A DNA stretch of 27,380 nucleotides from an uncultured Helicobacter sp. Its GTDB lineage: Bacteria; Campylobacterota; Campylobacteria; Campylobacterales; Helicobacteraceae. Both the position numbers and the translations under genes were made by a program. A model generated the notes under the pieces. The model saw only the letters and a list, made by a program, of their open reading frames with translations, was not told the origin of the DNA and made no database searches. The stretch lies in NCBI GenBank assembly GCA_949299115.1, contig CASFZH010000035.1:1-27380 (forward strand), in the 5' to 3' direction. Shown piece by piece: positions 15,631 through 16,075 of the stretch (position 1 is its first letter; every line of letters starts with the position of its first letter).

Positions 15631-16075
15631 TCAAAGCTTCCATAAATCCCCAAATTTTTTATCCCACTCATTTGGTGTGAATCTCCCAGTACCACCTTCA
15701 GGAGTGAATGTCAGCTCCCCCACAATACAGTGTGTGCTAAAATGATACATATCGATGCGTATCATTGTAAAATCCCCGCAAAGCGTCTTTGCGATTTGTT
15801 TCATAGATTCAAGATACTTGGGTTTTGGGATTTGTAAGACACAAGATGAATAGAGATAGGTAAAAGGCATTTTCTCCCATTTGTCATTAAAGATTGTTCG
15901 TGTGTGGTTAGTAAATCTATCTGTATCCACCTGCACGAAAATCTCCTCCTCAAAGCAATGGAATTTATAATCATCAGGGACTTTGAATGACATAGAATCT
16001 TGTAGAGAATCTTTAGAATCTGGCGTATCATTTTGGGCTAGATTCTGGAGTAAAGATTTATGAAAATTATGATTT
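15631..16075 (-). pseudogene. Promoterless, start-less partial paralogue of the TupA-like ATP-grasp gene (3' half only), in inverted orientation
   Basis: The minus-strand reading frame is open above the first ATG (15993) and reads ...LKNENHNFHKS...YKFHCFEEEIFVQVDTDRFTNHTRTIFNDKWEKMPFTYLY...MIRIDMYHFSTHCIVGELTFTPEGGTGRFTPNEWDKKFGDLWKL*. This is about 50% identical to residues from about 160 to the end of the 11401-12324 ORF. The two copies share an identical 27-nt stretch (11874-11900 and rc of 16058-16084). There is no in-frame ATG upstream of the homologous region before a stop, and no N-terminal domain. Confidence 0.65.

Follow-up and report, generated by a model that had tools for sequence, protein, structure and literature searches.

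A probable shufflon-type inversion exchanging the C-terminal half of an ATP-grasp enzyme in an uncultured Helicobacter

The ATP-grasp gene, its silent cassette and their neighbours

The window, as the whole analysed stretch of 27,380 nucleotides from an uncultured Helicobacter species is called here, carries on its plus strand a putative ATP-grasp amidoligase gene which starts at position 10914 and matches the Pfam family PF14305 (ATPgrasp_TupA) with an E value of 4e-35. The expressed protein is 53% identical to a 776 amino acids protein of Campylobacter jejuni (P0044). In this contig a tract of twelve guanines at 11256–11267 (plus strand) puts the gene in the OFF frame, and the open reading frame of the 5' part (10914–11270) ends at a TAA made by this frame. 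A preliminary description of the locus had assumed that recombination would be layered on a poly-G switch, and the tract is indeed found to interrupt the gene, for which it acts as an on/off switch as a whole. Sibling contigs contain 11 to 14 guanines, of which 11 or 14 yield a full-length gene and 12 or 13 a split one; in siblings where the 5' region is continuous with the downstream frame, proteins of 470 or 469 amino acids are encoded. The constant middle part, recognised by its translation at 11272–11873, is unmoved in all isomers described below. It leads into the 27 nucleotides AAAAAATGAAAATCATAATTTTCATAA at 11874–11900 (plus strand), which encode KNENHNFH in a linker of the protein, and these are followed by the C-terminal half in the expressed position, termed cassette E (11901–12324, plus strand, positions 127–239 of the PF14305 profile).

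Only 10 nucleotides beyond cassette E begins the gene of a pyridoxal phosphate (PLP) dependent enzyme, threonine-phosphate-decarboxylase-like or an aminotransferase (12334–13500, plus strand, PF00155), which matches the structure 6oux_A, deposited as a 'threonine phosphate decarboxylase-like enzyme', with an E value of 5.5e-111. It is followed on the same strand by a RelB-like antitoxin (13629–13907, PF04221), a truncated YoeB-like toxin reading frame (13984–14148, PF06769), a HAD-family phosphatase with a weak match to phosphoserine phosphatase structures (14333–14983, PF12710), and a truncated copy of a small membrane-protein reading frame (15342–15488). Sibling loci as well as two other species have counterparts of the latter with 75–77 amino acids, and in the fuller loci such a reading frame follows each silent cassette, and positions 15220–15401 of the window align at 76% to the start of the region of a 77 amino acids reading frame in the sibling contig L002.

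On the minus strand lies a second, silent C-terminal half, cassette C1 (15631–16057), in a frame open from about 16096 to the stop at 15631. It matches exclusively the C-terminal half of the family profile (positions 127–240 of 241, E value 3e-23), and a tblastn search with the 470 amino acids protein aligned to it residues 318–456 only, the N-terminal half being absent. The preliminary description had seen here a start-less paralogue of the C-terminal half with about 50% protein identity, its homology ending at 16075. The restriction to the C-terminal half was borne out, but the identity is 44% over 158 aligned columns and the homology reaches to 16096. The whole N-terminal half is missing as described, although an internal ATG opens a reading frame of 120 amino acids (15631–15993).

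The perfect match of 27 nucleotides mentioned in that description is real. The exact reverse complement of the sequence at 11874–11900 stands at 16058–16084 (minus strand), at the 5' edge of cassette C1, and this pair is the longest exact inverted repeat of the 27-kb window; with mismatches it can be extended to 39 nucleotides at 90% identity (11862–11900 and 16058–16096). To the right of the repeat the nucleotide identity is 64% over 357 columns with a longest identical run of 13 nucleotides, the chance of a run of 27 nucleotides at 64% identity being roughly 9e-4, and to the left it drops to random levels within 12–40 nucleotides. Both copies contain a core of the form TGAAAA-TCATAA-TTTTCA, as read from the sequence (11880–11897, plus strand, and 16061–16078, minus strand). 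The two repeats delimit a segment of 4,211 bp (11874–16084). Beyond its right end follows an AT-rich noncoding stretch of 24% GC (16085–17082), located downstream of ytkA (17083–17457, minus strand), which forms the fixed outer flank of the silent site and stays on the YtkA/MatE side in all isomers. A scan of positions 10000–18000 against Rfam gave zero matches, and a promoter and terminator scan of 10700–17800 found 49 promoter-like sites where 42 were expected, which is uninformative on transcription of the silent cassette or of a flipped operon.

Inverted isomers and chimeric genes in related contigs

The evidence for inversion consists of assembled metagenome contigs, not of reads. A near-identical contig, L028, which was assembled from another metagenome, represents the window in its exactly inverted form, with the 4,211-bp segment flipped between the two repeats. 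Its positions 1–8949 correspond to 2953–11900 of the window (99.99% identity), 8911–13145 to 16096–11862 in reverse orientation (99.8%), and 13107–13603 to 16058–16554 (100%); it contains no Ns and spans both junctions. The gene of 306 amino acids in this contig is a chimera of the N-terminal part and C1, in which NENHNFH is directly continued by KSLLQNL and the protein ends in DLWKL. A second, independent inversion was found in a two-cassette background by comparison of L003 with L002, and here too the hybrid flanks meet exactly at the 27-mer, the left repeat of the window being the breakpoint. Both the exchange of the C-terminal region and the inversion of the aminotransferase, toxin-antitoxin and HAD segment, which the preliminary description had expected of recombination between the copies, are thus seen in L028, and they are one and the same event.

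Among the sibling strains four different C-terminal halves are joined to the N-terminal part at the same codon: E in P0001, C1 in P0121 (the protein of L028), P0131 and P0122, C2 in L003, P0133 and P0009, and C3 in P0008 (contig L018), where an amino-acid permease gene follows. The alternative 3' alleles which had been suggested for related strains therefore exist, with C2 (L003/P0133) and C3 (L018) in the expressed position. Up to the sequence NENHNFH the proteins P0001, P0008, P0009, P0121, and P0133 are identical or differ by 1–3 substitutions. In all cassettes the reading frame continues uninterrupted from the site up to a stop typical of the family, and the motifs RxDxY and GE(L/I)T are kept; the cassette fragment is an intact reading frame in every related genome compared.

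Further contigs are interrupted at the repeats. The contig L080 consists of exactly the 4,211 nucleotides of window positions 11874–16084 at 100% identity, and another contig of the same sample, L029, stops at 11900. Four contigs (L076–L079), three among the Logan assemblies listed, which have two similar places in addition, and one with a k87-style name, start at 11874. Counting these and L029, at least six contigs besides L080 end at the outer edge of a repeat, such breaks occurring in at least five samples. Single samples appear to hold mixed orientations, for which two co-resident strains could account instead of switching within a clone. The E orientation is present in roughly 70–75% of the contigs; switching may therefore be slow, or one state may be favoured.

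The window itself is a one-cassette deletion derivative of a two-cassette locus. The 985-bp difference between the window and L002 must stem from a crossover of two sites whose spacers differ, within 42 identical nucleotides on the right-hand side of the core, and a loss of C1 was attributed to flanks of 186 nucleotides with 76% identity.

The same design recurs in other Helicobacter. A second uncultured species and H. canis have inverted cassettes with repeats of 37–77 nucleotides at the same point of the gene, and in a third species, also uncultured, three isomers of a three-site locus were found (L081/82, L086/88, and L085/87), together with five proteins sharing one common N-terminal half and differing in the C-terminal one. 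An isolate assembly of H. canis harbours a second, permuted copy of the cassette array, the permutations lying at repeats of 64–284 nucleotides. Equivalent cassettes are intact across the four species.

From these comparisons we conclude, with a probability of about 0.85, that the locus is a gene-altering programmed inversion, a switch of the shufflon type acting on an ATP-grasp gene. The gene would consist of a constant 5' part (10914–11873) and an exchangeable 3' half, with the 27-bp site in a disordered linker between them, and the inverted copy of the site 4.2 kb away would precede a promoter-less cassette devoid of the N-terminal half. Reciprocal recombination of the two sites would flip 11874–16084, placing the constant part in frame with cassette C1 and leaving cassette E, together with the PLP enzyme, the toxin-antitoxin pair, and the HAD phosphatase, as the silent, outward-facing copy. 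In fuller loci with more cassettes several C-terminal halves could be rotated into the gene in this manner, and the upstream poly-G tract would switch the whole gene on or off independently. Gene conversion or inversion had both been considered in the preliminary description; the isomers are reciprocal, and the process is an inversion and not gene conversion. As far as the gene order indicates, the flip would also uncouple the downstream PLP enzyme and HAD phosphatase from the expressed gene.

The site core, its candidate recombinase and alternative explanations

The core TGAAAA-N6-TTTTCA occurs twice in the window, where 0.03 occurrences are expected, and both are at the junctions. All cassette edges of the three uncultured species carry it, whereas in H. 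canis the exact motif is confined to the expressed gene and the silent copies have the left arm TGCAAA. The 6-bp spacers are TCATAA in the species of the window, GAGTGA in species 2, TGGTAA in species 3, and TGACGA in H. canis. In each genome at least one silent copy has the spacer of the expressed gene, so that the central region is identical in the partners; for species 2 this sharing was read across contigs, and in its contig L074 the motif of the expressed gene is disrupted. At the edge of C1 in L002 an apparent half site was considered as a truncated 27-mer, which was rejected since a full core is present with another spacer, GAGCGA, in the linker form of species 2. Among the compared contigs no inversion between the expressed site and this GAGCGA site was found. 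Across the four species the arms are kept while the spacer and the encoded residues change, and the base before GAA stays T in spite of a codon change from asparagine to isoleucine to phenylalanine.

Sites of serine invertases such as hix and gix comprise 26 bp with two 12-bp half-sites around a 2-bp core, and the invertase gene and an enhancer belong to the segment. A site of this type was rejected, as the half-sites are 4–6 bp apart instead of 2 and no resolvase or invertase domain is contained in the window. More resemblance exists to difH, the site at which XerH resolves chromosome dimers in Helicobacter and Campylobacter, with which the sites share the inner arm bases TGAAAA/TTTTCA and a central region of 6 bp. 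In difH the arms and the 6-bp spacing are the invariant part read base-specifically; such reading by XerH extends over the inner 5 bp of either arm, and the central region is barely contacted (PMC2731167, PMC3325230, PMC5241119). By our own count 14–15 of 19 positions of the difH consensus are matched. The departures are a T in place of the conserved C after the left arm (TGAAAAT) and runs of A in place of the T's of the outer arms. Unlike difH, which is a single intergenic site near the terminus, the sites described here are intragenic, inverted, and present in 2–5 copies per locus, and they are therefore not the dif site of the chromosome.

The occurrence of this core at the cassette edges makes catalysis of the Xer type plausible, and we tentatively propose as the likeliest reading, at slightly less than even odds, that the catalyst might be a tyrosine recombinase of the XerH family which is encoded elsewhere in the genome and acts on the difH-like core. 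No recombinase or integrase Pfam family was detected among the reading frames of the 27-kb window or the called genes in the 10-kb flanks of the related loci. A scan of a genome collection not including the source species with the 20-nucleotide core returned 43 matches, which is the chance level, in unrelated taxa and none of them in Helicobacter. The presence of the motif in all cassettes may partly reflect common ancestry of the linker.

The same inversion could also proceed without any dedicated recombinase, by RecA-dependent recombination, or by the short-repeat type known from Helicobacter, within the 27 nucleotides of identity, with the motif merely inherited as part of the linker; we consider this a serious possibility, though it too falls short of an even chance. 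It would agree with the missing recombinase gene close to any locus, with the homology-driven rearrangements described above (the 985-bp deletion via 42 nucleotides, the loss of C1 via its 186-nucleotide flanks, and the permutations in H. canis), and with the predominance of the E orientation, as rare events would give. The repeats also differ between the species in length (27, 37, 57–109, and 77 nucleotides) and position, and in species 2 a perfect repeat of 77 nucleotides stands beside the TGAAAA-N6-TTTTCA motif and not on it. Against this, a set of about 20 near-identical contigs contains no fewer than two independent inversions and orientations appear mixed in at least five samples, although 27 bp is at the lower limit for RecA-mediated exchange; moreover, the arms are retained in four species while spacer and residues changed. 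Of the blocks of identity in species 3, the one bearing the motif holds both mapped crossovers and the identical block of 23–29 nucleotides to its right holds neither, for which the likelihood ratio is only about 2.7; in the species of the window crossover mapping is uninformative because the whole shared stretch is identical.

Explanations other than inversion fare worse. Import of alternative C-terminal halves by natural transformation and allelic replacement, as in the methyltransferase domain movement of H. pylori, would suit naturally competent bacteria such as Helicobacter species, the nearby dprA gene (20312–21220), and the C3 locus of L018, whose different accessory genes, among them the permease, indicate gain, loss or exchange and not a simple flip. 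We regard it as improbable, since the pairs L028 and window and L003 and L002 and the series of species 3 are reciprocal, with the displaced cassette and all of the intervening sequence recovered in inverted orientation at the other site at 99.8–100% identity, which is not expected from replacement. Even less probable is that misassembly at the inverted repeat produced the flipped contigs and the broken ones. All data are indeed short-read metagenome assemblies, in which inverted repeats are a known source of misjoins, but the exact repeat of 27 nucleotides is shorter than the k-mers of the assemblers, which, judging by the contig names, would be 31 in the Logan assemblies and, should 'k87_' stand for MEGAHIT, 87. 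For a contig to stop at the 27-mer's outer edge, reads of both junction types must therefore be present; in addition, the inverted contigs have no Ns, span both junctions, and stem from different samples, studies, and species. That the silent copy is a defunct leftover from duplication or truncation of an ATP-grasp gene, its 27-nucleotide identity having no role, is barely credible: it lacks the N-terminal half and evident start signals and the window presents one orientation only, but the cassette is intact here, in all siblings and, as equivalents, in four species, C1 occupies the expressed position in other contigs, and next to the identical stretch the two sequences agree at 64% in one direction and at random level in the other. 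The decayed remnant to which the preliminary description had opposed its silent cassette is hence not what the related genomes contain, as their fragments are intact reading frames and inverted and chimeric variants occur.

Predicted function and relation to known systems

A search of the PDB sequences with the ATP-grasp protein gave no match. An AlphaFold2 model with a pLDDT of 74 weakly matches D-Ala-D-Ala ligase, RimK, and LysX (E value 4e-5, TM score about 0.3). Two beta strands of this ATP-grasp-like model are joined by a loop of pLDDT below 50, in which the swap point falls. The exchanged half carries the metal and ATP motifs and probably the amine pocket too.

A function is suggested by the capsule locus of C. 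jejuni HS:2, where Cj1438C amidates glucuronic acid with serinol phosphate or ethanolamine phosphate, Cj1436 and Cj1437 make ethanolamine phosphate and serinol phosphate, and Cj1435 removes the phosphate (PMC11800379, PMC12409886). Both loci have an ATP-grasp protein of the same Pfam family followed by a PLP enzyme and a HAD phosphatase. The closest to the C-terminal half of the Cj1438 type (P0044) is cassette E with 58% identity, compared with 38–44% for C1–C3. The two genes directly downstream of cassette E are those expected for supply and trimming of an amine phosphate, and they appear to be relatives of Cj1436/1437 and Cj1435; the tie of 6OUX to Cj1436/1437 consists in its deposited name, a literature search on the PDB code having returned nothing relevant. 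Unlike Cj1438C, the present enzyme has no fused glycosyltransferase, contains a long low-complexity linker in the middle of the ATP-grasp domain and an exchangeable C-terminal half, and is known here from sequence. By analogy it is predicted to amidate a uronic acid of a surface glycan, the C-terminal half presumably selecting the amine. An inversion would then change the surface decoration and at the same time cut the link to the genes supplying the amine phosphate, and one strain can probably make several versions of the decoration. A wider and more doubtful picture would be a clade of enterohepatic Helicobacter with a difH-like core in the linker, in which the housekeeping XerH or a paralogue shuffles C-terminal halves, each with its own amine-supply genes, and which together with the poly-G tract arrives at a combinatorial amide decoration.

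Classic examples of such switches are the shufflon of R64, in which the Rci recombinase exchanges the C-termini of PilV, and the G segment of phage Mu and the C segment of P1, in which Gin and Cin exchange those of tail fibres. They belong to the gene-altering programmed inversions, for which partial intergenic invertons and shufflons are other names (Milman et al. 2023, PMC9881135; Chanin et al., PMC10028968). As in shufflons, the expressed gene contains one repeat and a 3' cassette without a promoter is preceded by the other, the flip attaches alternative 3' parts in frame to the constant 5' part, and several cassettes give several isomers. Unlike in shufflons, the exchange affects a biosynthetic enzyme, an ATP-grasp ligase, in its catalytic domain and not a pilin, a tail fibre or a specificity subunit, no recombinase gene is found in or adjoining the locus, partner genes in the segment cause a rewiring of the operon, and the gene is in addition subject to a poly-G tract. 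Neither an ATP-grasp gene nor Helicobacter is mentioned in the main text of a systematic survey of programmed inversions (PMC9881135).

The swapping of half-genes at short intragenic repeats is shared with the inversion of hsdS in Streptococcus pneumoniae (SpnD39III/ivr, PMC4948785), and repeats of the hsdS type can be very short and inversion can persist without an adjacent recombinase (PMC9881135). The hsdS systems differ in protein family, in affecting the specificity of DNA methylation and not a probable glycan amidation, and in normally encoding a recombinase in the locus. A further inversion system of type I restriction-modification is hsd of Mycoplasma pulmonis. In the Mycoplasma systems vpma with Xer1 and vsa with HvsR, a recombinase of the Xer family inverts DNA at short sites and brings silent genes to one expression site. 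Silent copies are likewise carried by inversion to a single expression site in the locus described here, but the Mycoplasma loci encode their own recombinase and bring entire genes behind a promoter, whereas here half an enzyme is exchanged. In the sap locus of Campylobacter fetus the S-layer genes undergo RecA-dependent nested inversion through homologous gene ends. This system and the domain movement in H. pylori (PMC3575425, PMC7379913) also belong to Epsilonproteobacteria and recombine paralogous segments of surface or specificity genes without a dedicated local recombinase; they use hundreds of bp of homology, in contrast to the 27 identical nucleotides here, beyond which the identity is 64% to one side and random to the other.

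Programmed inversions altering a coding sequence are known mainly from pilins, tail fibres, and DNA-specificity subunits, and here half a catalytic domain is concerned, in a flip which also connects or disconnects amine-making genes. Provided that specificity differs among the cassettes, a single strain could change between several chemical decorations of its surface polysaccharide and switch them off by the poly-G tract, which would be an economical way for gut Helicobacter to vary antigens or phage receptors. With no recombinase nearby and a difH-like core, the Xer system of the chromosome may have been borrowed for phase variation; if the reading with XerH is true, a programmed inversion would here dispense with a local recombinase of its own and re-tool the active site of an enzyme and not a binding protein. 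The locus also reveals a point at which an ATP-grasp ligase can be split and fused anew, and it offers natural chimeras for studying nucleophile specificity in the family of Cj1438C. As it breaks metagenome assemblies at the 27-nucleotide repeat, systems of this kind are likely under-reported.

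The inverted repeat and its isomers

The 27-mer AAAAAATGAAAATCATAATTTTCATAA is found at 11874-11900 on the plus strand and its exact reverse complement at 16058-16084. No other exact inverted repeat in the window is as long, and with mismatches allowed this one reaches 39 nt at 90% identity. To its right the copies show 64% nucleotide identity, with 13 nt as the longest identical run, and to its left identity falls to random level within a few bases; at 64% identity a run of 27 identical nucleotides has a probability of about 9e-4. A minus-strand frame is open from about 16096 to a stop at 15631. 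In a profile search this frame matched only positions 127-240 of the 241 of the Pfam model ATPgrasp_TupA, and tblastn of the 470-aa protein detected only residues 318-456 at this locus. The preliminary description of a silent, inverted partial copy of the C-terminal half of the ATP-grasp gene, with a perfect 27-nt match at its edge, is thus confirmed. Its placement was right in general with small corrections to the limits, the frame reaching about 16096 and not 16075, and the protein identity to the plus-strand gene is 44% instead of about 50%.

The expressed gene starts at 10914 and is interrupted in the window by a G12 tract at 11256-11267. Sibling contigs carry tracts of G11 to G14, and since G11 or G14 yields an uninterrupted protein of 469 or 470 aa the tract is a working on/off switch. 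Across samples it phase-varies independently of cassette orientation. The window contig is in the orientation that puts cassette E in the expressed position, with the poly-G tract in an OFF frame.

Exact-protein look-ups yielded many near-identical contigs from other metagenome samples. Contig L028, which has 13,603 nt and is free of Ns, runs parallel to the window to 11900, then follows 16096-11862 in reverse and continues from 16058 onward, with all blocks 99.8-100% identical to the window. This is the anticipated inverted isomer, the segment between the 27-mers being reversed, and its gene crosses the junction into C1, the silent cassette of the window (...NENHNFH/KSLLQNLAQNDT...DLWKL, the slash marking the junction). 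Sibling L002 contains a fuller locus with two silent cassettes, C1 and, farther out, C2. L003 carries the same locus with the stretch from the site in the gene to the outer of the silent sites reversed; its hybrid flanks join precisely in the 27-mer and its gene encodes the N part fused to C2 (P0009). By cluster look-up more chimeras were found in other contigs, namely P0131 and P0122 with C1 and P0133 with a distinct allele of C2. In L018 a further cassette, C3, is joined at the same codon as the others, with two more silent cassettes downstream. The predicted chimeric 3' ends thus exist for C1, C2 and C3, and from the junctions in the window, L028, L003 and L018 it follows that four C-halves occupy the expressed position.

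Recombination sites in four species and a candidate catalyst

In two further uncultured Helicobacter species the gene is located after rpoN (species 2, L074 and L075; species 3, L081 and others), and in H. canis after a serine dehydratase gene; inverted partial cassettes lie downstream of it in all three. One N-half is common to five full-length proteins of species 3 with five different C-halves, and six contigs of this species display three isomers of a three-site locus, the second one inversion and the third two inversions away from the first; one of these events took place between two silent sites. H. canis has a 37-nt repeat from the same point of the gene in three inverted copies and one direct copy. 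The H. canis data come from a cultured isolate (GCA_900451095.1; L083, UGHV01000001.1, and L084, UGHV01000006.1). Its second contig, of 14 kb, holds the locus again; here the order of the cassettes is permuted, with partial inversion, at repeats of 64-284 nt, and many genes are broken. This contig may represent a less common isomer that was assembled from low coverage.

The 27-mer includes TGAAAA-TCATAA-TTTTCA. The motif TGAAAA-N6-TTTTCA occurs twice in the window, both times at the junctions, against 0.03 expected, and in the three uncultured species it is present at every cassette edge. The expressed gene of H. canis has the exact motif, and the left arm reads TGCAAA in the silent copies of that species. 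The 6-bp spacers differ by species (TCATAA, GAGTGA, TGGTAA, TGACGA), while within each genome at least one silent copy has the spacer of the expressed gene, read across contigs for species 2 because the motif in the L074 expressed gene is disrupted. In that metagenome-assembled genome the expressed gene lacks 7 nt (TTCATAA) in the right arm (10821-10838), a frameshift that splits it into 316- and 122-aa parts, and the silent copies have the full motif; the loss could have been left behind by an aberrant recombination event or could be plain decay.

The dif consensus of Helicobacter and Campylobacter is TT--T--TGAAAAC---A-TTTTCAAA, in which the arms TGAAAA/TTTTCA are always palindromic around a 6-bp central region and recombination is lost when the G or the A-run is mutated (PMC2731167, PMC3325230). 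According to the crystal structure of XerH, the inner 5 bp of each arm are read base-specifically and the central region is hardly touched (PMC5241119). The sites described here keep the arms and the 6-bp spacing exactly but lack the conserved C beside the left arm and the outer T's. Neither the window nor the flanks of the related loci encode a recombinase. We tentatively favour catalysis of the inversion at the difH-like core by XerH, or by a relative whose gene lies elsewhere (probability about 0.45), because precisely the features read by XerH are retained.

General short-homology recombination is a serious alternative and nearly as probable. Homology-driven events clearly happen at this locus, the repeats differ in length and position from species to species, and mapping of the species-3 crossovers favours the motif-containing block only weakly. 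Each genome of the window's species has just two full 27-mers, one in the gene and one at the outermost silent cassette. The inner cassette C1 of L002 is preceded by the linker form ATTGAAAAGAGCGATTTTCATAA, which has 42 identical bases in common with the start of C2. About 985 bp of L002 are absent from the window, with the crossover within this 42-nt identity, which placed the 27-mer beside C1. Other siblings have lost C1 via partly similar regions after each cassette (L005). Homology-driven deletions therefore also shape the locus.

Mixed orientations and intact silent cassettes

Contigs ending at the repeat were sought by looking up the partial proteins expected from contigs that begin exactly there. 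L080 is a 4,211-nt contig identical to 11874-16084, the invertible segment alone, and L029 from the same sample terminates at 11900. Contigs from at least three Logan assemblies (L076, L077, L078) start at 11874, as does L079, with a k87-style name, from another study. At 27 nt the exact repeat is shorter than the k-mers used by the assemblers behind these contigs, so a graph branch at its outer edge should need both junction combinations in the reads. These assembled contigs indirectly indicate that both orientations are present within single samples, and the breaks could also reflect two co-resident strains.

In each of the four species every cassette has an open frame that runs from the repeat to a family-typical stop, and retains the RxDxY and GE(L/I)T motifs, which are invariant in the family. 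A silent cassette with a recombination anchor is backed by the inverted isomers and in-frame chimeras, and a dead remnant is opposed by the intact frames. The finding is real, and its reading as a recombinational switch of the C-half is supported.

The exchanged enzyme half and its neighbours

The named proteins closest to the ATP-grasp protein belong to the "ATP-grasp fold amidoligase family" and come from enterohepatic Helicobacter. Another relative is a C. jejuni protein of the Cj1438 type (776 aa, 53% identity). Judged by these matches, the DNA comes from an uncultured enterohepatic Helicobacter. The TupA-like domain of Cj1438 amidates capsule glucuronic acid with serinol phosphate or ethanolamine phosphate; Cj1437 and Cj1436 produce these amines, and Cj1435 takes off the phosphate (PMC11800379, PMC12409886). 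The same three kinds of gene are consecutive in the window: the ATP-grasp gene, a PLP enzyme at 12334-13500 whose best match among solved structures is 6oux ("threonine phosphate decarboxylase-like", E=5.5e-111) and, downstream, a HAD phosphatase (14333-14983). The four cassettes are only 31-52% identical to each other, and E is closest to the C-terminal half of Cj1438 (58% versus 38-44% for the others).

When one full-length protein of species 3 was modelled with AlphaFold (mean pLDDT 74), the linker fell in a loop of pLDDT below 50, between the strand ending ...FAEE and the strand DYKFHCF; the model weakly matches the ATP-grasp ligases D-Ala-D-Ala ligase, RimK and LysX. In enzymes of this type the metal ligands lie in the C-terminal domain, as does a large part of the pocket for the second substrate, and it is therefore reasonable to propose that the C-half selects the amine. 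This is supported by E, the most Cj1438-like cassette, being physically tied to amine-phosphate genes and C3 to an amino-acid permease instead of PLP enzyme and phosphatase; accessory genes tied to cassettes thus differ between strains.

Inversion systems in which a gene receives a different 3' part form a class with shufflons, hsdS systems and the Mu G segment as members. This class is established as "gene-altering programmed inversions" or "partial intergenic invertons" (PMC9881135, PMC10028968). The present locus is structurally of this kind except for the usual adjacent recombinase, which it lacks. New are the target, half the catalytic domain of a predicted glycan-modifying ATP-grasp ligase, the coupling to partner genes of the enzyme, the superposition on a poly-G switch, a core resembling difH and the recurrence across several enterohepatic Helicobacter species. 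The main text of one survey mentions neither ATP-grasp enzymes nor Helicobacter (PMC9881135).

RelB and YoeB genes (13629-14148) lie within the invertible segment. The YoeB frame has just 54 aa, matching the C-terminal part of the model, and is uncalled in some siblings (L006, L024); in H. canis a YafQ-like toxin gene lies among the cassettes (L083, 11701-12174). Such toxin-antitoxin genes might protect the segment against deletion between repeats. In L018 the permease, together with a protein of 219 aa and unknown family (9324-11398), replaces PLP enzyme, toxin-antitoxin pair and HAD phosphatase. In one sample the PLP-enzyme gene is broken into 221- and 178-aa frames (L024, 10214-11381), so the amine-supply gene appears inactivated in that population. 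A small two-helix membrane protein of 75-77 aa is encoded on the opposite strand after the silent cassettes of three species (15342-15488 in the window, truncated to 48 aa; L002 13928-14161; L074 11816-12046; L081 11658-11885); a Pfam search gave no family above threshold. Between ytkA and the silent site lies an AT-rich stretch of about 1 kb (16085-17082, 24% GC) with no convincing gene, and as ytkA is transcribed towards the silent cassette, read-through could reach whatever occupies that site. All siblings have the gene for DNA-processing protein A, dprA (20312-21220), at a distance of 4 kb from the locus, probably by coincidental synteny.
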